Shown here one piece after another: positions 2 to 20,722 of a stretch of 25,397 bases of DNA. This DNA is from Candidatus Bipolaricaulia bacterium (lineage in GTDB: Bacteria; Bipolaricaulota; Bipolaricaulia; RBG-16-55-9). The stretch spans positions 1,650 to 27,046 of the forward strand of contig JBDGQO010000035.1 in NCBI GenBank assembly GCA_042219045.1. Direction: 5' to 3'. Every line of letters begins with the position of its first letter. Within the stretch, counting starts at the first letter, position 1. The notes under the pieces are model-generated. The model saw only the letters and a list, made by a program, of their open reading frames with translations. It had not been told where the DNA came from and ran no database searches. The translations under genes were made by a program, and so were the position numbers.

Positions 2-802
2 GTAGATCTCGCGAGACTTCAGCCCCACCGTCCGATCCTCGGTCATGTCGACGACGCCCACGCCGTGTCGGCCGGCTCGCTCGTTGAGGGAGGCGATCAG
101 ATCGATCAAGGGCATACCCACGCCGTCGAGGAAGATGGGGAGACCTTGCTCAAAGCTCAGTTCGATCGTCTCCGGGTCATCAGGCGCTTCTTCCGGAGGC
201 ACGCACATCTCGTAGACATCGCGCGGCGGCTCATGGAAGGGGTCTTCGAGGACGCCGCACTCGATGCTGCGCCCCCAGAGGTTGGCGTCAACGGAGTACG
301 TCGACTCGGGCGGAACGGGGATGCCGTGCTCGCGAGCGTACGCCACCTCGCTCTCCCGATCGAGGTTCCACTGACGGATGGGCGCAATGATCGCGAGATG
401 CGGCGCCAACGCGCCGAGTGAGACCTCGAAACGGACTTGGTCGTTCCCCTTGCCCGTGCAGCCGTGAGCGACCGCGTCGGCGCCGATCTCGTTGGCGACC
501 GCGACGGCCTGCTCGGCCATCAGGGGTCGAGCCAGCGCCGTCGCGAGCGGATAGGCGTCCTGGTAAAGCCCGTTCGCCCGAATGGCCCGCGTCAGGTACT
601 CGTCCGCGAACGCCTCGCGGGCGTCGATCACGTGGGCGTCGACGGCGCCTAGCTCAAGGGCCTTCTCGCGGGCCGCCTCGACGCCGCCTTGGCCCAGATC
701 GAGCGTCAGCGTCGTGACCTGCGCGTCGTAGTGATCCTGCAGCCAGGGCACCATGCAGGAGGTGTCCAGACCGCCGGAATAGAGCAACAACACGTTCTCC
801 AT
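2..802 (-). CDS. argG: Argininosuccinate synthase (5' part; runs off the left edge of the window)
   Basis: Not in the ORF track (no stop in window). Manual translation from ATG at 802 gives MENVLLLYSGGLDTSCMVPWLQDHY...AHGCTGKGNDQVRFE, containing both ArgG signatures (YSGGLDTS; GCTGKGNDQVRF). Confidence 0.97.
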   Translation of the reverse strand, partial: MENVLLLYSGGLDTSCMVPWLQDHYDAQVTTLTLDLGQGGVEAAREKALELGAVDAHVIDAREAFADEYLTRAIRANGLYQDAYPLATALARPLMAEQAVAVANEIGADAVAHGCTGKGNDQVRFEVSLGALAPHLAIIAPIRQWNLDRESEVAYAREHGIPVPPESTYSVDANLWGRSIECGVLEDPFHEPPRDVYEMCVPPEEAPDDPETIELSFEQGLPIFLDGVGMPLIDLIASLNERAGRHGVGVVDMTEDRTVGLKSREIY

Positions 803-899
803 AAGGATCTCTTTCTGTTCGGATAGCCGACAACCGTAACGCTCAAAACAGGACCGATGAGCGCTACGACGGACTCAACGGACGTCGGTCAGGGCTTGG

Positions 900-920
900 A
901 AAATCGCGCGGTCCGCGCGA
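900..920 (-). terminator. GC-rich hairpin plus short U-tract just after the Arg leader stop codon (candidate attenuator terminator or pause)
   Basis: Minus strand TCGCGCGG-A-CCGCGCGA-TTTT (perfect 8-bp inverted repeat at 904-920), starting 4 nt after the TAA. The U-tract is short, so it may be a pause rather than a full intrinsic terminator. Confidence 0.55.
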
Positions 921-924
921 GGGG

Positions 925-1062
925 TTATCGTCGAGCTCGTTTGGAAGGTCGTCGGAAGCGTTTGGCGGGCGTGGCGTCCAGATGGGACAGGCCGGCGGAC
1001 CGAACAGGACTGGCTAAACCGGTCTGCAGAACGGACTGCGGTTCGTCGCTCCAATGGGTCAT
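925..1062 (-). CDS. Putative arginine-sensing leader peptide (45 aa)
   Basis: MTHWSDEPQSVLQTGLASPVRSAGLSHLDATPAKRFRRPSKRARR*. GGAGG SD (1070-1074) lies 7 nt before the ATG. Six Arg in the last 11 codons, five of them CGA. Sits between a promoter and argG. Confidence 0.8.
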   Translation of the reverse strand: MTHWSDEPQSVLQTGLASPVRSAGLSHLDATPAKRFRRPSKRARR

Positions 1063-1093
1063 GTTACCGCCTCCGACTTTGAGGGTGAGCGTC

Positions 1094-1123
1094 ACTATAG
1101 AGGAAGTCGGGGAGACTTGTCAA
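1094..1123 (-). promoter_or_regulatory. sigma70-type promoter for leader-argG
   Basis: TTGACA (1123-1118) - 18 bp - TATAGT (1099-1094). Confidence 0.75.
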
Positions 1124-1173
1124 GGAAGTCGTCTTGATCCGTATCTCGCTAAGCTGGATCATCAGATCGCTCG

Positions 1174-1983
1174 CTATTCGGACTCTGTGACCTCCATGGT
1201 CTGGAGCGTCGCGGGTGTGAAGCCGAAGCTCGGTAGAGAATGCGCTTCACGGTTGGAGACGGTGAGCGTCGACTCGATCGAGGTCGTCTCGTCACGCACA
1301 CGGACCGTGCCGATGACGGATTGGTCCTGATAGTTCACGTAATCCTCGATGACGACCGTCTTGCCCAGGGAGCCAGCGGCATCGTAGGTATCCCAGCGGA
1401 TCGGCCGACCGTCGGCGTCGACCTCCACGTCAATGCGCGCATACGTCAACTCCACTTGTGTGTCAGCCGAATCCGGTGCCGCAAGCGTGATACGTAGGCC
1501 GCCGTCGCCGCGAGCAGTGTGACCAACCTGCCTATAGGCGTCCAGTTGGAAGCCGACAAAGAACTCCTCGAGACCGAGCGCGCTGCCGAGCAGGGGGCCT
1601 CTTCGTTCGTCGGACGAGTCGACGGGGACGACATCGCCTTGCTCGGGGCGGAACTGCATGAGATCCTCGCCGCGCCGCAGCCAGCGTCGATCGCTCTCGC
1701 TCATGGAGATGGCGATCAGCCCCTGGAAGCTGTCGGTGACGAGGCTGAATAGGGCGATGTCATGGGTGATCGCCTTCCCTTCGGGCTCCTGAATCATCAA
1801 GTGCGCGTTCGCGGCGATCGGCCCTGAGCCGACGAGCCAATGGCCGGGAGGAACGCCCCCGAGCGACGGCTGCGCATCGGGCGATGTCGCAGGAACCGAT
1901 GGAAAAGCGGGATCAAAGACCGCCCAAGCCAACAGCGCGGCGATAGCGCCAACAGCGATCAACAGCCAGAGCGACAGGCGCAT
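1174..1983 (-). CDS. Exported LolA-like / 'outer-membrane lipoprotein-sorting' family protein, 269 aa
   Basis: N-terminal hydrophobic signal or anchor. The pattern RRGPLLGSALGLEEF...YARIDVEVDADGRPIRWDTYDAAGSLGKTV...LPSFGFTPATL resembles the LolA_like family (GSDF.YED...YD..GKLLKT...FTP..L). SD GAGGAG. Confidence 0.6.
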   Translation of the reverse strand: MRLSLWLLIAVGAIAALLAWAVFDPAFPSVPATSPDAQPSLGGVPPGHWLVGSGPIAANAHLMIQEPEGKAITHDIALFSLVTDSFQGLIAISMSESDRRWLRRGEDLMQFRPEQGDVVPVDSSDERRGPLLGSALGLEEFFVGFQLDAYRQVGHTARGDGGLRITLAAPDSADTQVELTYARIDVEVDADGRPIRWDTYDAAGSLGKTVVIEDYVNYQDQSVIGTVRVRDETTSIESTLTVSNREAHSLPSFGFTPATLQTMEVTESE

Positions 1984-1986
1984 GGA

Positions 1987-2544
1987 TCACTCCTCGGCAG
2001 AGCGAGCCGGCACGCAATCGTCGAGCTGAAAGTCACCGACGCCTTGAATACGAAAGTCATCAGGGCAAGTGTTGAGGAAAGGCCCGAGCACGGCCTCTTC
2101 ATTGCCATCCGGCCCGATGTAGCGACCGACCAAGAGGGGCAGCTCCGCGTCAGGGAATCCGAGGATCACCGCGTCCGCAACCAAGGCAAGCGCTTGTTGT
2201 AGACGTTCATCGCCCAATCTGGATAGTCGACCCGAGCGTTGCAGCGTGAATTGAATCGTGTTGGTGACGATGACGCTCTGGACGATCGGCTGAAGACTTC
2301 CCGACGATATGCCGGAGCGCGCCTGCTCCCAGAAAGGGATGAGGTTGCTCGAAGCCTCCGGAAGTTCCTCTTGGAGCAACGCCGTCAGGTTATCAATACG
2401 ATCGTTGATCAATGTGGCGAAGTCGACGGTACGTGAAGAGGGTTGGGACATTTGGGCCGACGTCATGATCAGCATTGCGAAGATGATCAACGTGACCGTC
2501 GCGATCAACACGGTGGAACGCATGAGCGGACGCGGCTCCGGCAT
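1987..2544 (-). CDS. Hypothetical exported or membrane-anchored protein, 185 aa
   Basis: Hydrophobic N-terminal segment, SD AGGAGG overlapping the upstream stop, two C-terminal Cys, tightly packed in the operon. Confidence 0.7.
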   Translation of the reverse strand: MPEPRPLMRSTVLIATVTLIIFAMLIMTSAQMSQPSSRTVDFATLINDRIDNLTALLQEELPEASSNLIPFWEQARSGISSGSLQPIVQSVIVTNTIQFTLQRSGRLSRLGDERLQQALALVADAVILGFPDAELPLLVGRYIGPDGNEEAVLGPFLNTCPDDFRIQGVGDFQLDDCVPARSAEE

Positions 2545-2556
2545 TGCGCAGACCTC

Positions 2557-3030
2557 CTAGAGTACCTCAAATGGCCCGAATGACAACAGCGAGAGCTCGC
2601 CCTGGAACAGCGGCTCCATCCGCCACTCCACAGCCCCCTGGGCTGTGTCGACCTGTCGGAGTTCAATTCCGATTTCCGGAGGGGAGGCAAGCCTCAACAG
2701 CTGAACTTTGGGGGCGATCCGCCACCCCGACCAGTTCGGGGCCCACCCGAGCAGGACTCCCAGCGAGCGCGCTTGGATCGCGGTGGCCTCAACTGCGGAA
2801 AGCCTATCGCTCGCTACGCCGATGTACAGATGAGCGAATGTCTGTGGCCCCAGCGACTCATAAACGTGTCCTGTGATGCCGAATTCGGGAACCGCCTTCC
2901 CGGGCGTGAACGCAACACTCCCGGTCAATGAGTCTTGCTGTTCTGGTGAAAGGGCCATTCCGTCGATTCCGATCGCACCGATCAGCAAGAGGGAAATCAC
3001 GGAAACCAGAATTCTTGTTCGTATCCGCAT
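2557..3030 (-). CDS. Hypothetical secreted beta-strand-rich protein, 157 aa
   Basis: Basic N-terminus plus hydrophobic signal (MRIRTRILVSVISLLLIGAIG...), SD GAAGGTGA, amphipathic beta-strand-like segments. Confidence 0.7.
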   Translation of the reverse strand: MRIRTRILVSVISLLLIGAIGIDGMALSPEQQDSLTGSVAFTPGKAVPEFGITGHVYESLGPQTFAHLYIGVASDRLSAVEATAIQARSLGVLLGWAPNWSGWRIAPKVQLLRLASPPEIGIELRQVDTAQGAVEWRMEPLFQGELSLLSFGPFEVL

Positions 3031-3073
3031 GCGATCACCTTCTTTCCTTATCTTGGTTTAATTGCTTATACAG

Positions 3074-3310
3074 TTAAAAATCAAACTCACACTCGACTCG
3101 GATGAACACCAGCTCACCGTCTGGGGTGATGACAACGATATCAACGGTACATTTGGCTGCTTGTGCGACTAAGGCCGGATCATCTACGGATTGACCACTG
3201 ACCAATGCTGCTGGAGCTGAAGAGGCAATATGTAGTACTCCTTGCGGCCCTCCCATCCCGACAAACAGCGCCACGGCCAACACCGCAACCAGAATTCTCC
3301 TCTTAAACAT
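3074..3310 (-). CDS. Small secreted precursor peptide with C-terminal Cys-bracketed beta-hairpin, 78 aa
   Basis: Strong SD AAAGGAGGT (3318-3326). Signal peptide MFKRRILVAVLAVALFVG. C-terminus KCTVDIVVITPDGELVFIRVECEFDF. Confidence 0.8.
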   Translation of the reverse strand: MFKRRILVAVLAVALFVGMGGPQGVLHIASSAPAALVSGQSVDDPALVAQAAKCTVDIVVITPDGELVFIRVECEFDF

Positions 3311-3394
3311 CGTCTTTACCTCCTTTGAAGGTGTTTTAGGTTGCGGCCACGATACTCTTCCTTCTGGGTGGCAGCTGCGCCTTCAGTGACAGTT

Positions 3395-3437
3395 AGCCTA
3401 TCGCATTCGGGACACTTAAGTTGTCACATTCGCGACA
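3395..3437 (-). promoter_or_regulatory. Class II Crp/Fnr-family-dependent promoter: TGTCA-N6-CGACA box plus -10 TAGGCT
   Basis: Near-palindrome TGTCA-cattcg-CGACA at 3422-3437. The -10 TAGGCT at 3400-3395 places the box centre at -41.5. Confidence 0.7.
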
Positions 3438-4129
3438 TTGGCCAGCCCCCCCCCTTCGAGGAACGGCGTTGCCGTTTGCTGCAGTTGGGAAAGATCCAGA
3501 ATGGTCATCCACCCTGACTGACGTGTGAGCACGCTCCGCCGTTCGAGCTTCAGCACCGCCTCGTTGACCCGCTGGCGACTGCGACCCAGCATCTTCGCCA
3601 ATGTCGTCACGGTCAGTTTCGGTTCGATCGTGATGTCACCCGTTGAACGGTCTCGACCAAAGCGTCGCTGCAAGAACCAGAGCAGCACCGCCAGTTCCTC
3701 ATCGAGGTTGCCGGAAGAGGCTGCCAACAGCCGGGCCTGGAGCTCGAAGGACTCCTCGATCAGCAGGGTCATCAACGAGCTTAGACCTTCGTCAGATTGC
3801 GCAACGAGGGCTGACAAGTCCCGTGGATCGAATTGGAGCAGTCGAGTCGGTTGTAGCGTCTGCGCGTAGGCACGTCGCGAGGCCCCACTTAGCAAGGCCG
3901 ATTTGCCCAAGACATCGTTGGGACCGAGCAGACGAATCAGAAATGAGCGCCCGTCTTCCGTCACATGCGACAGATGGATCCAACCGTGCTGCACCACGTA
4001 GATGAGATCAGATGGATCCCCTTGAGCGAAGATGGCGCTCTTCCTCGGGTACGTCACGGGTGAGAGCGTGATCCCGGCTCGATCAGCCCACCGACGAAGT
4101 TGAGGTTCGGTGAGTTCGCGTCCCGACAT
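3416..4129 (-). CDS. Crp/Fnr family transcriptional regulator, 237 aa
   Basis: cNMP-binding-like beta-roll (IFAQGDPSDLIYVVQHGWIHL...LLGPNDVLG) and C-terminal HTH (LTVTTLAKMLGRSRQRVNEAVLKL). Confidence 0.92.
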   Translation of the reverse strand: MSGRELTEPQLRRWADRAGITLSPVTYPRKSAIFAQGDPSDLIYVVQHGWIHLSHVTEDGRSFLIRLLGPNDVLGKSALLSGASRRAYAQTLQPTRLLQFDPRDLSALVAQSDEGLSSLMTLLIEESFELQARLLAASSGNLDEELAVLLWFLQRRFGRDRSTGDITIEPKLTVTTLAKMLGRSRQRVNEAVLKLERRSVLTRQSGWMTILDLSQLQQTATPFLEGGGLANVANVTT

Positions 4130-4258
4130 GACTATAGTCTCTCTATAAACTTTGCATTCTAACAGTTAGAGCTTATCGTTGTTGTATGAGATGCTCAAGC
4201 AACCCGATCGGGTCTGCGCCTTGCGCCGCGACTGCCGAGCGCTTTTAATGAGGGCACC

Positions 4259-4627
4259 ATGGATCGACTCTTTGTCGCGCTCGGGGCCTTATTGGCGGGC
4301 ATCGGCGTCGCGGCGGGCGCCTTCGGCGCGCACGGCCTGCGCGACCGACTGTCATCGGAGATGCTGGCCATCTTTGAGACCGGCGTCCGCTATCACCTGA
4401 TCCACGCGCTGGCGCTCATGATCACGGCTTGGGCCACAACGCGCTGGGAGAGCGGGCTGATCCCTGTTGCGGGTTGGCTCTTCGTCGTCGGCATCGTCGT
4501 CTTCTCGGGCAGCCTCTATGCGCTCAGCCTGACCGAGACCCGCTGGCTCGGCGCGATCACCCCGATCGGCGGCGCGGCGTTCGTCGTCGGCTGGATATTG
4601 CTCGCTTGGGCGGCGCTTCGGGGCTGA
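4259..4627 (+). CDS. DUF423 (YgdD/TMEM256-like) small membrane protein
   Basis: GAFGAHGL...FETGVRYHLIHAL...FSGSLY...GAITPIGG motifs. Confidence 0.93.
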   Translation: MDRLFVALGALLAGIGVAAGAFGAHGLRDRLSSEMLAIFETGVRYHLIHALALMITAWATTRWESGLIPVAGWLFVVGIVVFSGSLYALSLTETRWLGAITPIGGAAFVVGWILLAWAALRG

Positions 4628-6920: not shown

Positions 6921-8333
6921 ATGCTCCGCGACAGGGTCGAACGGACGCTCCGGGAACGTGCCATGCTCCAAGGCCATGAGCCGGTGCTTGTCGCCGTCTC
7001 CGGCGGCGTCGACTCCATGACGCTGCTGCACGTTCTGCGAGAACTGGCCGACGACTGGAATTTTCAACTGAGCGTCGCCCATCTCGACCACATGATGCGC
7101 CCAGAGTCTGCCGACGACGCCCAGTTCGTCGTCGACCATGCAAGGTCACAGGATCTTCCCGTTTTCCAAGAGGCGGTCAACGTCCCGGCCCATATCGACC
7201 GTGAGGGAGGGTCGCCCGAAGCGGGCGCCCGCGAGGTCCGCTATGGGTTTCTGCGTCAGGCCGCTCGCGACGCCGGAGCATCGACGATCGCGCTCGGCCA
7301 CACGCTCGACGACCGCGTCGAGACCCTTCTCATCAACCTGTTGCGCGGCAGCGGCATCGGGGGATTGGCCGGCATGCCGCCGAGGCGCTCGGAATGTGAC
7401 CTACATTACGTTCGGCCCTTGATTGACGTCTCCCGTCGCGAGATCGAAGCGTACGCTAAGAGCCAGCACGTTCCCTACCGTGAGGACCCGAGCAACCGCG
7501 ATACGCGCTACGAGCGCAATCGCATTCGACAGCAACTGATGCCGCTGTTGGAGACGTTCAATCCCAGCGTCCGCCATGCCCTGGCTCGAGCCAGCGAGGC
7601 GTTGACCGAGGTGAGCGATTATCTGAATGGCGAAGCCGACAAGCTTCTGCAGCGGGCCTACATCGATTCCGACGACACGGGCTGTGCCTGGGATGCTCAG
7701 ACGCTGGGCCGGGCCCATCGGGCCCTCCAACTCCAAGCGCTCCGGCAAGCGATCCGTCGGGTTAAGACCGACCTTGACGCCATCACGACGGAGCACCTTG
7801 AAGCCGTGTCCGGCTTGCTCCGCGAGGCACGCTCGGGCCGAACCGTGGCGTTGCCCGATGCCTTAACGGCCCGGTATCAAGCGGATCGATTGATCGTCGA
7901 GCACGCCGCCCCGACTGACGAACCGAGCTCCCCCATCGAGGTCCCGCTCTCTCAAGACGGCATGACCGAGGTTCCCCAGCTGGGCTGGAGGTTTGCCGTT
8001 GATACCATGCACGGCTCGCATCCGCACTCGTCGGACCAGTTGGAAGCGCGACTTGATGCCGATACAATGGACGGGCCGCTCGCCATGCGCAACCGACGAG
8101 CCGGCGATCGCATACGACCGCTTGGACTGGGAGGCACAAAGAAGTTGCAGGACATCTTCGTCGACGCCAAAACTCCCCGACACCATCGCGACCAGGTGCC
8201 ATTGATTTGCGATCAGCAAGGCATTCTCTGGGTTACAGGACACTGCATCGACGAACGTGGCCGGGTCACTCAGGCCACCCGACGGACCGTGCGGATCCAG
8301 GCCGAACGCATGGCTCCACAGGAGGCGCGCTGA
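6921..8333 (+). CDS. tilS: tRNA(Ile)-lysidine synthetase
   Basis: AVSGGVDS PP-loop, GHTLDD, EDPSN...RNRIR, TilS C-terminal domain (GGTKKLQDIFVDAK). ATG 6921 preferred over TTG 6885. Confidence 0.96.
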   Translation: MLRDRVERTLRERAMLQGHEPVLVAVSGGVDSMTLLHVLRELADDWNFQLSVAHLDHMMRPESADDAQFVVDHARSQDLPVFQEAVNVPAHIDREGGSPEAGAREVRYGFLRQAARDAGASTIALGHTLDDRVETLLINLLRGSGIGGLAGMPPRRSECDLHYVRPLIDVSRREIEAYAKSQHVPYREDPSNRDTRYERNRIRQQLMPLLETFNPSVRHALARASEALTEVSDYLNGEADKLLQRAYIDSDDTGCAWDAQTLGRAHRALQLQALRQAIRRVKTDLDAITTEHLEAVSGLLREARSGRTVALPDALTARYQADRLIVEHAAPTDEPSSPIEVPLSQDGMTEVPQLGWRFAVDTMHGSHPHSSDQLEARLDADTMDGPLAMRNRRAGDRIRPLGLGGTKKLQDIFVDAKTPRHHRDQVPLICDQQGILWVTGHCIDERGRVTQATRRTVRIQAERMAPQEAR

Positions 8334-8335
8334 TC

Positions 8336-9958
8336 ATGGCCGAAATCCTGAACACGCTCCTCTCGGTGGTCCAGGCCGTGCTCATCTTCGGCGTCACGAT
8401 CAGCTTCCTCGTCTTTATCCACGAGGGCGGCCACTTCCTCGTGGCCAAGTGGGCCGGCGTCTGGGTCCACGAGTTCGCCATCGGCATGGGGCCTGCCGCC
8501 TGGCGTCGCCAGCGCGGTGAGACGGAATACACCTTCCGCATCTTGCCCATCGGCGGCTACGTCCGCATGGCCGGAGAGGACGGCCTCAGCGACGAGGACA
8601 GCGAGATCCCGGATGATCGGCTCTTCAGCAACAAGTCCGGCTGGACCCGCTCGGCGATCATCTTCGCTGGCCCGTTCGTCAACGTCGTGGCGGCGCTCGC
8701 GCTGATGATCGGCTTCGTCAGCCTGGCCGGCATGTCTTACGTCGAAGTGGCCGAAGTGGCGCCCAATTCACCCGCACAGGGCGTTTTGGAAAGCGGCGAC
8801 AAGATTGTCGAGCTCAACGGCGAGGCGATCTACAGCGACCGACAGATCCCCACGATCGTGCAGAACTCGGAGGGTAAACCGATTAGCGCCGTCATCCGGC
8901 GCGGCGACACCACCAAGCAGGTCCAGCTCGATCCCTATCTCAACGAGGACCAAGGGCGATACCTCATCGGCGTCTACTTCGCCTATCCGCTCAACCGCCT
9001 TGCGGAGGTCCCGGAGGATTCGGCGCTTGCCAAGCAGGGCTTCCAGTCCGAAGACGAGATCTTGTCCGTAGGCGGCCGGCCCGTGGGGAGCTGGACCGAG
9101 GTCATCAACGCCCTCGATCGGGCGCAAAGCGCGCACGATTCGAGCGTGACTGTTCAGATCCGCCGCGATGGGGCCCGGCAAAAGCTGACCGTTGATGCAA
9201 GCCAACTCGATCTCTCGGCAATCCAGGACTCAAGCGTGGCCATGCGCGTCCCACCGACCTGGTCGACGGTCCGAAACGTCAAGCCGGACTCCATCTGGGC
9301 GGAGGCCGGCCTTCAAGCGGGGGATCGTCTGCTGTCTGCGAACGGCCGGGCGATCCACGGATCGGTCGATCTCGTCAAGGCGATCGAGCGAGCCCGAAGC
9401 AAGGATGAGGCGAGAACGCTCCAACTGGAAATCAACCGGGACGGCCAGACCCTGACGTTGACGGTCCCCCTAGCCGGCGCCGAGCTGGAGACCGTCATGG
9501 GGAATCTCCAGTTGAATCCGGCCCGGCGGCAACCCGAGACGCTCTGGGCTGGCGTTCGAATCGGCAGCCAACAGATTTGGGACATCCTCGCCCTGACGTA
9601 CTTCGGGCTCAAGCAGGTCTTCACCGGTCAGATGGAAGCCGGGCAGGCGTTTGTCGGCCCGGTCGGCATTGCCGATCTGTTAGGCCAGAGCCTCGATCTC
9701 GGCTTCGGATATTTCTTGCGGCTGGTCGCGCTGCTCAGCCTGATGCTGGGGATTTTCAACATTCTGCCCTTCCCCGCGCTCGACGGCAGCCGCATCGTGC
9801 TGAACGGCATCAACGGGCTGCTCAAGATGGTGATCGGCAAGCCGATCCCCCCCGAAAAGGAAGGCGCGCTCCACTACGTCGGCTTTGCGCTGCTCATGGC
9901 GCTGGTGCTGTTTATCACGTGGAACGACATCGAGCGGCTGTTCAGCGGCGGCTTCTAA
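8336..9958 (+). CDS. rseP: RIP metalloprotease RseP (M50B) with three PDZ-like repeats
   Basis: HEGGH zinc motif, LPIGGYVRMAGE, AGPFVN, NILPFPALDG. Start reassigned to ATG 8336 with SD GGAGG. Confidence 0.95.
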   Translation: MAEILNTLLSVVQAVLIFGVTISFLVFIHEGGHFLVAKWAGVWVHEFAIGMGPAAWRRQRGETEYTFRILPIGGYVRMAGEDGLSDEDSEIPDDRLFSNKSGWTRSAIIFAGPFVNVVAALALMIGFVSLAGMSYVEVAEVAPNSPAQGVLESGDKIVELNGEAIYSDRQIPTIVQNSEGKPISAVIRRGDTTKQVQLDPYLNEDQGRYLIGVYFAYPLNRLAEVPEDSALAKQGFQSEDEILSVGGRPVGSWTEVINALDRAQSAHDSSVTVQIRRDGARQKLTVDASQLDLSAIQDSSVAMRVPPTWSTVRNVKPDSIWAEAGLQAGDRLLSANGRAIHGSVDLVKAIERARSKDEARTLQLEINRDGQTLTLTVPLAGAELETVMGNLQLNPARRQPETLWAGVRIGSQQIWDILALTYFGLKQVFTGQMEAGQAFVGPVGIADLLGQSLDLGFGYFLRLVALLSLMLGIFNILPFPALDGSRIVLNGINGLLKMVIGKPIPPEKEGALHYVGFALLMALVLFITWNDIERLFSGGF

Positions 9959-12195: not shown

Positions 12196-13317
12196 TCAGA
12201 ACTCGAGGTCGAGGCCGAGGCTAGACTCCTGGAAGCCCTGCGGCGTCAGCAGCGTTGAAAACGTCAGCCCCTCCCAGAACGCCTCAAGCTTGAACTGTTG
12301 CTGACCCGTGTCGTTGAGAATTGAGGCTTGCCCCGAGAAATCGACCGACCCGAGCTCGGCGGTCAACTGGAAGCGCTGCTCTTTGACACCCTCACCGCGG
12401 CTGAAGGTCGTCGTGCTCTTCAGCGTGTTGGACCCGAAGTCGTAATTGACAGCGAATTTCCCTTCCTTGATCTGGACGGCATTCTCGGCGGGGTCTAGTT
12501 CCGCCTGGCTCGTGACATCGCCGTTGCTGATTTTGACGGTTACTTCCCCGACGTTGAGCGGGCTCGAAAGGTCGTGTTGTTCCCGCGTCTGCTTCAACAC
12601 CGTGGAGACGTCAAGCCCACTGACGCTTCGGCCCATGTTGAACACCAGCGTCACCTCGTCGCCTGATTCCGGCAGCGGCACCTCCGCGTTCATGAGGCTG
12701 CGCGTCAGATACTGCGTCAGGCCGGACATAAAGTCGGCTTTGGCTTCTAGCTTCGTGTTACCCAGCTGGAGCGAGAGCTTTTGTGGAACGCGCTCGCCCA
12801 GCGACGATGTGCTTACGCGTTTGTCCGACACCTTAGCAAATGTCCGAACCAGGTCTTTGGTGACGTTCGGGTAGCGTGCCAAAAGGCTGATGTTTTCGCC
12901 GAACTTCATCTGCAAATCGGAGTCGAACCCTGGGTTCGCCGGCATCTCGTTATGCTCAACAAGGCCTGAGAGCGTGTAGTTCCGGTTGAGCGGGATGTCA
13001 CGCATTGATTCCGTGGACGGCATGCTCAACGGCTTGGCGCTCCGCTTGGCGGAACGCTCAGCTTCCGATTGGGCTGTCAGGCAATCGAGGTCGGCACCGG
13101 GATTGAGGTCGAGGACCGAACGGGGCAGTAGCCAATTGACGAGCGACGTAAGCGTCTGCTGGACGTCTTCGGAACCGTTTTCTTGCGTTCCGCATTGGGG
13201 CAAGTTTGCCGAGCTTTCGGAAGCAGTGGCGAATCCTGGAGACGACGCAGCCACCATGAGTCCGATCGAAAGAGCTAAAATTGCCCAATGACGCCGATCG
13301 GGCCATGCCGTGTGCAT
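12196..13317 (-). CDS. Hypothetical secreted protein, probable beta-barrel or surface protein (373 aa)
   Basis: Start at ATG 13317 with SD AAGGGAGT; signal peptide; C-terminal half of alternating beta-strands ending SLGLDLEF. Confidence 0.7.
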   Translation of the reverse strand: MHTAWPDRRHWAILALSIGLMVAASSPGFATASESSANLPQCGTQENGSEDVQQTLTSLVNWLLPRSVLDLNPGADLDCLTAQSEAERSAKRSAKPLSMPSTESMRDIPLNRNYTLSGLVEHNEMPANPGFDSDLQMKFGENISLLARYPNVTKDLVRTFAKVSDKRVSTSSLGERVPQKLSLQLGNTKLEAKADFMSGLTQYLTRSLMNAEVPLPESGDEVTLVFNMGRSVSGLDVSTVLKQTREQHDLSSPLNVGEVTVKISNGDVTSQAELDPAENAVQIKEGKFAVNYDFGSNTLKSTTTFSRGEGVKEQRFQLTAELGSVDFSGQASILNDTGQQQFKLEAFWEGLTFSTLLTPQGFQESSLGLDLEF

Positions 13318-13339
13318 CGGAAACACTCCCTTAACCTTG

Positions 13340-13368
13340 ATTCTATCACCGCCCCTTACTCGGATCAA
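13340..13368 (-). promoter_or_regulatory. sigma70 promoter of the secreted-protein gene
   Basis: TTGATC - 17 bp - TAGAAT with extended -10 TGn. Confidence 0.65.
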
Positions 13369-20484: not shown

Positions 20485-20722
20485 GTTGCTCTCCTTTGCC
20501 CAGAAAACTGGCTTACAGACCGGATCTACGGTGTTTGCTTTCGGCTGGATAAACCCCGATTTGTATCTTGATCATCCAGGGCGGACGTGTCAACGGACAG
20601 ACGTCCGTCGAGGCGAGGAGACCCCCGCATATAGGCTTTGAAGATGCTTTCAGGACATTGGTCCGTCCCGTGGGTTGTAACTGTGGGAGGCCCACTAAGA
20701 GAGTTGAGCGTGGCCGAGCGGG

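Follow-up and report, generated by a model that had tools for sequence, protein, structure and literature searches.

A Crp-family regulator, a LolA-like protein and three small predicted exported proteins form a compact gene cassette in a Candidatus Bipolaricaulia contig

Introduction

The stretch of DNA analysed here (the window, 25,397 nucleotides) corresponds to positions 1,650 to 27,046 of the forward strand of contig JBDGQO010000035.1, from the assembly GCA_042219045.1 of a Candidatus Bipolaricaulia bacterium. It contains a cassette of five genes encoding a Crp-family regulator, three small proteins of 78, 157 and 185 aa (p78, p157 and p185) and a LolA-like protein of 269 aa. The question raised by this locus is whether its genes act together in the cell envelope, and on which cargo, or only share a transcript and a compartment. 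The answer favoured here, held tentatively, is that the cassette might be an accessory module of the envelope under its own regulation, centred on a LolA-fold protein that is tethered to the membrane and carries a hydrophobic ligand. The ligand would be accepted or conducted by p157, with p185 as an adaptor, while p78 would be either an accessory or the cargo; a reading with no joint mechanism is equally likely. A module of this kind, if confirmed, would be a case of a LolA-fold carrier with its own small partners and without an ATP-binding cassette (ABC) or resistance-nodulation-division (RND) pump, in an uncultured lineage, and would bear on how hydrophobic molecules cross envelopes without the classical Lol, Lpt or Mla machines. 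At present the cassette counts among the very numerous operons of exported orphan proteins that are specific to one lineage, and its value lies in being a small, defined and testable set of four genes, one regulator and one candidate operator.

Gene organization of the cassette

The five genes are all located on the minus strand, co-oriented and at the coordinates first noted for them; the initial annotation named neither this strand nor argG as the next gene on it. The order from the regulator is as follows:

Crp-family regulator gene: 3416-4129, minus strand, 237 aa
p78 gene: 3074-3310, minus strand, 78 aa
p157 gene: 2557-3030, minus strand, 157 aa
p185 gene: 1987-2544, minus strand, 185 aa
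LolA-like gene: 1174-1983, minus strand, 269 aa

The intergenic gaps are 105 nt between the regulator gene and p78, 43 nt between p78 and p157, 12 nt between p157 and p185, and 3 nt between p185 and the LolA-like gene, so that the gaps of 3-43 nt given in the initial annotation are correct for the last four genes. Shine-Dalgarno (SD) pairing energies against a generic anti-SD were calculated for 22 starts in the window: p78 shows the strongest of them (-13.2 kcal/mol), p185, p157 and the LolA-like gene show -11.4, -9.3 and -8.8 kcal/mol, respectively, and the regulator start has no SD (-3.5 kcal/mol). As read from the sequence, the four products downstream of the regulator have basic or charged N-terminal residues followed by a hydrophobic stretch of 15-20 residues, and none has a lipobox cysteine. 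The SD and export signal initially described for each of the last four genes are thus borne out by energies between -8.8 and -13.2 kcal/mol and by these hydrophobic N-termini. An extracytoplasmic setting is further supported by the signal-like N-termini in all p157 relatives and by paired cysteines, conserved in p185 and present in p78.

Known families cover just two of the cassette proteins, the regulator and the LolA-like protein; p78, p157 and p185 have no family match in Pfam, NCBIfam, PADLOC or PHROGs. In the same four collections the cassette shows no domain of a modifying enzyme, an ABC transporter or a peptidase, in agreement with the initial annotation. No partner of a ribosomally synthesized and post-translationally modified peptide (RiPP) or bacteriocin, namely a modifying enzyme, a leader peptidase or a dedicated transporter, was found in the five proteins or the neighbouring genes, and no ABC transporter among the 21 other open reading frames (ORFs) of the window that were scanned. 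For anti-phage defence, the PADLOC rows are at chance level only (E 0.03-0.06). Alignments with hhalign and BLASTP gave no indication of paralogy of p157 and p185 with the LolA-like alignment or with each other. Family, PDB-sequence and literature searches gave no match for the cassette, which had not been recognised as a described system at the outset either.

The LolA-like protein

The LolA-like protein shows an N-terminal hydrophobic helix, a Pro-rich linker and a domain that matches PF17131 (LolA_like) with an E-value of 1.4e-8 and 35.1 bits, against a cut-off of 30; the match spans residues 96-261 of the protein and positions 15-183 of the 184 of the profile. PF17131 is matched by five of the six members of its family (best E 5.3e-11), and the family profile finds the PDB entry 3bk5, 'putative outer membrane lipoprotein-sorting protein', with E 4.7e-5. 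The protein therefore matches both the model and a solved member of the LolA/LolB/LppX superfamily, and the label under which it was first described stands. Because PF17131 is matched above its cut-off and 3bk5 is found by the profile, a half-barrel with a hydrophobic cavity is expected in this protein. The LolA fold is known to keep cargo that is hydrophobic or acylated out of contact with water. Canonical LolA is a soluble periplasmic protein, whereas the hydrophobic N-terminus and the Pro-rich linker of the 269-aa protein suggest that it is tethered to the membrane. It also differs from the canonical Lol pathway, in which a LolA equivalog works with an ABC partner, LolCDE or LolDF: the 269-aa protein has no NCBIfam match of any kind, the LolA equivalog included, and no such partner was found for the cassette in the window. 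A tblastn search of plasmids gave no match for the protein. What proteins of the 3bk5 type do is not known either (PMC6394551).

The three small proteins

A word-indexed search of 5.8 billion proteins with p157 found one protein, at 98% identity, and HMMER, run exhaustively over 1.84 billion representatives, found four: the one at 98% and three distant relatives of 148-157 aa, with identities of 36%, 32% and 43% and E-values of 1.4e-10, 1.6e-7 and 2.5e-4. The family shows a conserved block rich in Trp and Gly, LGxxLGWxxxW(S/T)GWxxxPxVxLxR...SPxExG, and matches neither a Pfam family nor a PDB sequence (E no better than 0.17 in the PDB); no plasmid match was obtained by tblastn. The AlphaFold2 model from a five-sequence alignment contains eight up-down strands, with a predicted local distance difference test score (pLDDT) of 54.8 and a predicted template modelling score of 0.47. 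In all four distinct members, a hydrophobic face of the predicted strands alternates with a face of Gly, Ser, Thr, His, Tyr or charged residues. Foldseek found nothing for this model in the PDB at E<=0.001; its highest-probability rows are the transmembrane domain of OmpA (1qjp, probability 0.95, template modelling (TM) scores 0.38/0.43), PagP, designed transmembrane barrels and the EspP barrel. The nearest clusters by Atlas features are OMP_b-brl, TraO and Autotransporter, with scores of 0.92-0.93 and few shared features, a lead only. These two leads agree and, weak as each is, together with the dyad pattern of the strands they weakly suggest that p157 is beta-barrel-like. With the small eight-stranded outer-membrane barrels (the OmpA transmembrane domain, PagP and OmpX) p157 shares a signal-like N-terminus, about 130 presumed mature residues and eight predicted dyad strands; it differs from them in having no significant sequence or structure match, and a terminal Phe is found in only one of the four distinct family members.

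The word-indexed search of the same 5.8 billion proteins with p185 found itself and one relative at 57% identity. The AlphaFold2 model obtained from these two sequences (pLDDT 57.3, with 65-88 in the bundle) contains an N-terminal helix and a four-helix bundle at about residues 42-129, and the C-terminus is unmodelled. Two cysteines of this C-terminal region, C160 and C177, are conserved in the relative at 57%. With low confidence, p185 may thus be described as a signal or anchor helix followed by a four-helix bundle and a disulfide tail. Foldseek gave generic four-helix bundles only (E>=0.08), the Atlas gave no usable feature match, with TM scores below 0.5 in all structure rows, and the PDB sequences gave nothing better than E 0.17 for the p185 family. 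The start of p185 differs between annotations, 178 aa from Met8 in one and 185 aa in the other, and the SD speaks strongly for the longer form, with -11.4 kcal/mol at its start and only -5.8 kcal/mol at Met8. A reading of the anti-sigma or RseB type, in which the LolA fold would regulate a membrane anti-sigma factor, was rejected, given that p185 would have only about 10 cytoplasmic residues and that no sigma factor gene is nearby.

The p78 protein contains an N-terminal hydrophobic segment, a linker of Ala, Ser and Pro, and a C-terminal hairpin of 21 residues from C54 to C74, C-TVDIVVIT-PDG-ELVFIRVE-C-EFDF, in the register read from the sequence. If C54 and C74 are paired, one face carries V56:V72, I58:I70 and V60:V68, the opposite face carries D57:R71, and PDG is the turn. 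In this register the hairpin would be amphipathic, closed by a disulfide and hydrophobic over the whole of one face, and p78 would be an exported or membrane-anchored peptide. An identical copy is located on a second contig, and its 90% cluster contains one sequence; no other relative was found at >=90% identity, the widest level searched. No PDB sequence match was better than E 0.17.

The regulator and a candidate operator

The regulator shows the two Pfam domains of its family, PF00027 cNMP_binding at residues 25-111 (E 2.3e-19) and PF13545 HTH_Crp_2 at residues 148-218 (E 9.4e-9). Its best solved relatives, aligned over the full length, are 3h3u, 3mzh and 3d0s (E 1.9e-18), labelled in the PDB 'probable transcriptional regulatory protein (probably Crp/Fnr-family)', followed by 4cyd, 4byy and 3r6s (E about 6e-15); we take the former to be Mycobacterium tuberculosis Crp and the latter Corynebacterium GlxR. 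All scores against the CRP, NtcA and FNR equivalogs of NCBIfam are far below their cut-offs. The 237 residues include no cysteine, and the protein is therefore not an FNR-type Fe-S (oxygen) sensor. It has the two-domain architecture of the actinobacterial Crp-type regulators in these solved entries. By the E. coli CRP numbering, the Gly-Glu pair that contacts ribose in E. coli CRP is presumably replaced by Gly-Lys, and the recognition helix reads RSRQRVNE; because of these two features, the ligand and the DNA site are probably different from those of the actinobacterial Crp-type regulators.

A candidate operator recurs in the cassette, with these elements:

Box CGATAAGCTCTAACTGT: 4162-4178, minus strand, candidate operator before the regulator gene, ending 33 nt upstream of the regulator ATG
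Palindrome TCTAACTGTTAGA: 4158-4170, minus strand, 13 bp, overlapping box CGATAAGCTCTAACTGT
Second box copy CGATAGGCTAACTGT: 3389-3403, minus strand, 78 nt upstream of the p78 ATG
Third TAACTGT: 3070-3076, minus strand, overlapping the stop codon of p78, in the 43-nt gap that precedes p157

The heptamer TAACTGT has four sites in the window against 0.27 expected; of these, three lie on the coding strand, one in each of three intergenic regions of the cassette; any 7-mer shared by the three regions was found in 66 of 20000 mononucleotide shuffles. The long form of the box, CGATARGC-N0-2-TAACTGT, is located in the window only before the regulator gene and before p78. The box (TAACTGT; palindrome TCTAAC-T-GTTAGA) is unlike the TGTGA-N6-TCACA site. 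It gives modest support to local control by the regulator. Of the initial description of the cassette as Crp/Fnr-controlled, the Crp-family domains and, modestly, the box are in favour, and an FNR-type regulator is not, for want of cysteines. The fourth TAACTGT (20678-20684, plus strand) is located between dnaX and a tRNA-Pro gene.

No terminator-like site was found between the cassette genes; two matches of the scan are inside coding sequence and within chance expectation. The promoter scan showed no sigma-70-like promoter for the cassette operon, and the sole consensus match in 700-4400 is that of argG. Co-transcription of all five genes and activator-dependent transcription of the last four are both possible.

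Genomic context, distribution and mosaicism

Downstream of the cassette and on the same strand is argG (2-802), and upstream are the genes encoding DUF423 and a 2-hydroxyacid dehydrogenase (2-Hacid_dh), divergent from the cassette, which is therefore located between housekeeping genes, as initially described. Its core is richer in AT: in 200-nt windows the GC content is 0.455-0.545 over 2901-3500 and 0.60-0.72 in the flanks, a drop that includes the AT-rich zone first noticed at about 3030-3420. The GC content at third codon positions (GC3) is 0.48 in p78, 0.67-0.76 in the other four cassette genes, 0.85-0.87 in argG, DUF423, 2-Hacid_dh and GSDH, and 0.71-0.88 in the rest of the window. The surroundings of the cassette show neither an integrase nor a transposase, and no tRNA junction or direct repeat flanks it; a reading of it as a mobile element was dropped for lack of an integrase and of flanking direct repeats.

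The four exported proteins are found together on one further contig, of 120,384 bp, from a close relative: p78 and p185 are 100% identical there, p157 is 98% identical, and a LolA-like protein (P0006) is also encoded. The co-occurrence elsewhere that the initial annotation had called for is seen only on the contig of this near-identical relative. Members of the 90% cluster of the regulator and a relative of the dehydrogenase are recorded on a 40,208-bp contig, from a source of the same type, and not on the 120,384-bp contig. In the search of 5.8 billion proteins, the LolA-like protein has five others, at 85, 74, 71, 33 and 33% identity. Two of its relatives show a mosaic relationship to it: P0006 is identical at 105 of 105 positions (residues 1-105), then at 80 of 149, and then at 15 of 15 (255-269), and P0005 at 64 of 105 and then at 164 of 164. 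The breakpoint is sharp and near codon 105 (about nt 1668); either recombination of alleles or chimeric assembly of co-existing strains could have produced it.

Distant relatives of the LolA-like protein, p157 and p185 are recorded on contigs of different lengths, and the diverged relatives of these three proteins keep their motifs and cysteines. A profile search of genome contigs with the LolA-like alignment gave 30 pattern matches, none of which was confirmed. When 80 ArgG loci (<=58% identity) were searched by tblastn with nine proteins (the five of the cassette, DUF423, 2-Hacid_dh, GSDH and TilS), none was found at E<=0.01, and only chance rows at E<=10. The contig records of the relatives indirectly indicate a cassette that is accessory and not conserved as a block, and its distribution is very narrow.

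Host and envelope type

The best identity of ArgG among 185,579 species representatives is 57-58%. In a quick ArgG tree the window has a long branch inside a group of 18 Actinomycetota and one unplaced row (98 in the Shimodaira-Hasegawa-like approximate likelihood ratio test), by which this one gene weakly places the host among the Actinomycetota. No envelope-biogenesis gene was found among the window ORFs scanned. A 390-aa ORF at 12196-13368, minus strand, shows a signal-like N-terminus, a beta-rich alternating sequence and the C-terminal LGLDLEF, an ending that we take to resemble that of outer-membrane proteins. This ORF, which matches no Pfam family and no PDB sequence, might encode an outer-membrane-type protein and so bear on the envelope type of the host; it is the only such hint in the window.

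Possible functions of the cassette

In the favoured reading, the Crp-family regulator probably binds the shared box before its own gene and before p78, and in this way would control a four-gene transcript from p78 through p157 and p185 to the LolA-like gene. All four products would be exported via Sec. The LolA-like protein would be tethered to the cytoplasmic membrane by its N-terminal helix and Pro-rich linker, present its half-barrel, and shuttle a molecule of hydrophobic or lipidic nature between that membrane and an outer layer of the envelope. The molecule would be accepted or conducted by p157, modelled as a small beta protein of eight strands; the helical bundle of p185 would serve as accessory or adaptor, and p78, with its disulfide-locked amphipathic hairpin, either as a stoichiometric accessory or as the cargo itself. 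The genes with their spacing and SD sites, the two family assignments and the recurring box are observed, whereas export, topology, co-transcription, control by the neighbouring regulator, the folds of the three small proteins and the transfer scheme as a whole are inferences.

Two known systems, both with a pump, are precedents for this reading. AmeABCD contains a DUF1302 outer-membrane barrel, a DUF1329 LolA-superfamily protein, a periplasmic accessory protein and an HAE3 RND pump, and acts on hydrophobic compounds (PMC6394551); Borrelia BBJ23-29 contains a LolA-superfamily protein with an outer barrel, accessory periplasmic proteins and a pump, with hydrophobic substrates (PMC13078400). The cassette resembles AmeABCD in having a LolA-superfamily protein, a beta-barrel-like exported protein and an exported accessory protein in one operon. 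It differs from both in having no pump, RND in the case of AmeABCD, and from AmeABCD in that p157 has no DUF1302 match and about one quarter of the size of AmeA, and in that the LolA-like protein matches PF17131 and has no DUF1329 match in Pfam. The host of the cassette may, in addition, lack an outer membrane, to judge from the ArgG tree.

Several results weigh against such a transfer module. Neither the cassette nor the 25-kb window contains an energy source or a membrane transporter, whereas an ABC or RND pump is part of the known LolA-superfamily systems mentioned above. The genes are seen together in one near-identical relative only; no p157 or p185 match is recorded on a 521,741-bp contig with a LolA-like relative (in the 90% cluster of P0007, at 71%), and no cassette match at all on a 411,419-bp contig that contains CoaBC, RecR, thiolase and ADH at >=90%. 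The models of p157 (pLDDT 54.8) and p185 (57.3) are of low confidence, without a Foldseek match at E<=0.001, and the box was spotted post hoc, at three sites in one genome. The placement of ArgG and the presumed mycobacterial Crp relatives of the regulator lean weakly towards the Actinomycetota; with a single-membrane host, the reading of p157 as an outer-membrane barrel would fail. Complex prediction (LolA-like 45-269, p157 27-157, p185 35-185, and p78 31-78 as the partner) counts neither way, with interaction prediction scores from aligned errors (ipSAE) of 0.01 and 0.00 against a mark of 0.32.

Equally likely to this module, and as doubtful, is that the cassette contains fast-evolving orphan exported proteins that share a transcript and a compartment and have no joint mechanism, each with a job of its own or with little function, the LolA-like protein being its only broadly retained part. 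The extremely few homologues (one for p157 in the word-indexed search and four with HMMER, two for p185, six for the LolA-like protein), the record of the distant relatives of three proteins on contigs of different lengths, a GC3 below that of the flanks and the lack of any family or defence-system match agree with it. A tight spacing down to 3 nt with an SD for each of the last four genes, and a box shared by the regulator gene and p78, the first gene, do not; nor does the relative in which p78 and p185 are 100% and p157 98% identical while the body of the LolA-like protein has diverged to 54%, a pattern which argues that these small genes are being maintained and not decaying. The cassette could also be a surface module that was acquired horizontally, varies between strains and evolves under diversifying selection, such as a receptor or shield in interactions with phages or neighbours, and whose LolA-like body is swapped by recombination. 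This is improbable, even with the mosaic LolA-like alleles and their sharp breakpoint at about residue 105, the low GC3 and AT-rich core, the location of the regulator and 2-Hacid_dh of the near relative on the 40,208-bp contig and of its four exported genes on the 120,384-bp contig, and the absence of cassette matches from the 411,419-bp contig of the close relative in its favour; the lack of an integrase, transposase, tRNA junction or flanking direct repeat, of any PADLOC or PHROGs match and of a plasmid match for p157 and the LolA-like protein argues against it, and the mosaics are possibly chimeric metagenome assemblies of co-existing strains.

The remaining readings are centred on p78. 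The initial annotation had proposed an abundant small subunit handled by a beta-rich partner and a LolA-fold carrier, and in this form p78 would be a secreted hairpin acting as a fibre, amyloid, oligomeric pore, signal or toxin, with the other proteins as chaperone, carrier or immunity. Its position as first gene and its SD, the strongest of the 22 starts, stand; its abundance, its handling by p157 and the LolA-like protein, and a role as fibre, pore or signal find no support. The hairpin face is wholly hydrophobic and closed by a disulfide, and so must pack against something; the protein is identical in the second contig; and its ending EFDF, alternating and with a terminal aromatic residue, is one that we take to be typical of strands which enter a beta sheet or extend it at the edge. 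On the other side, p78 has no relative at >=90% (a wider search was not made), hence no evidence of selection, and with 0.48 its GC3 departs widely from what is normal in this genome; the cassette encodes neither a peptidase nor a transporter or modifying enzyme; the hairpin is acidic (net charge about -5, counted by hand), unlike the cationic hairpin antimicrobials; and none of the five proteins has a match to curli or another amyloid family in Pfam or NCBIfam. Such a role is on balance unlikely. Very remote is a trans-envelope device without a pump and with a peptide, and not a lipid, as cargo or building block, in a lineage that groups with the Actinomycetota by ArgG: the LolA fold would cover the hydrophobic side of the disulfide-locked p78 hairpin and deliver it to p157, and the hairpins would add onto or complete the barrel, giving a composite or oligomeric pore. 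If true, this would be a new way to build a channel in the outer layer and a new class of cargo for LolA-fold carriers.

Other features of the window

The region 803-1173, between argG and the cassette, shows features of its own. A near-consensus promoter of argG, TTGACA-18-TATAGT, is located at 1123-1094 on the minus strand, and is followed by a GGAGG SD, 7 nt, and an ORF of 45 codons (925-1062, minus strand). The last 12 codons of this leader ORF contain six Arg codons, five of them CGA, and CGA represents 15% of the Arg codons in 17 window genes. Four nt past its stop codon there is a 7-bp GC hairpin (about 896-918) followed by UUUU, and a second hairpin (835-868) is located before argG. 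An arginine-codon leader-peptide attenuator of argG is possible in this region. The leader region has no Rfam match, and the exact leader ORF is not in the protein collection; Rfam shows two tRNAs only, both over the whole window at gathering score and in the search of 700-4400 at E<=1.

The window also contains a gene encoding an RseP-type M50 peptidase of 583 aa (8207-9958), with two full PDZ_2 stretches and further partial PDZ matches. RseP-type peptidases usually have one or two PDZ domains, fewer than this protein.

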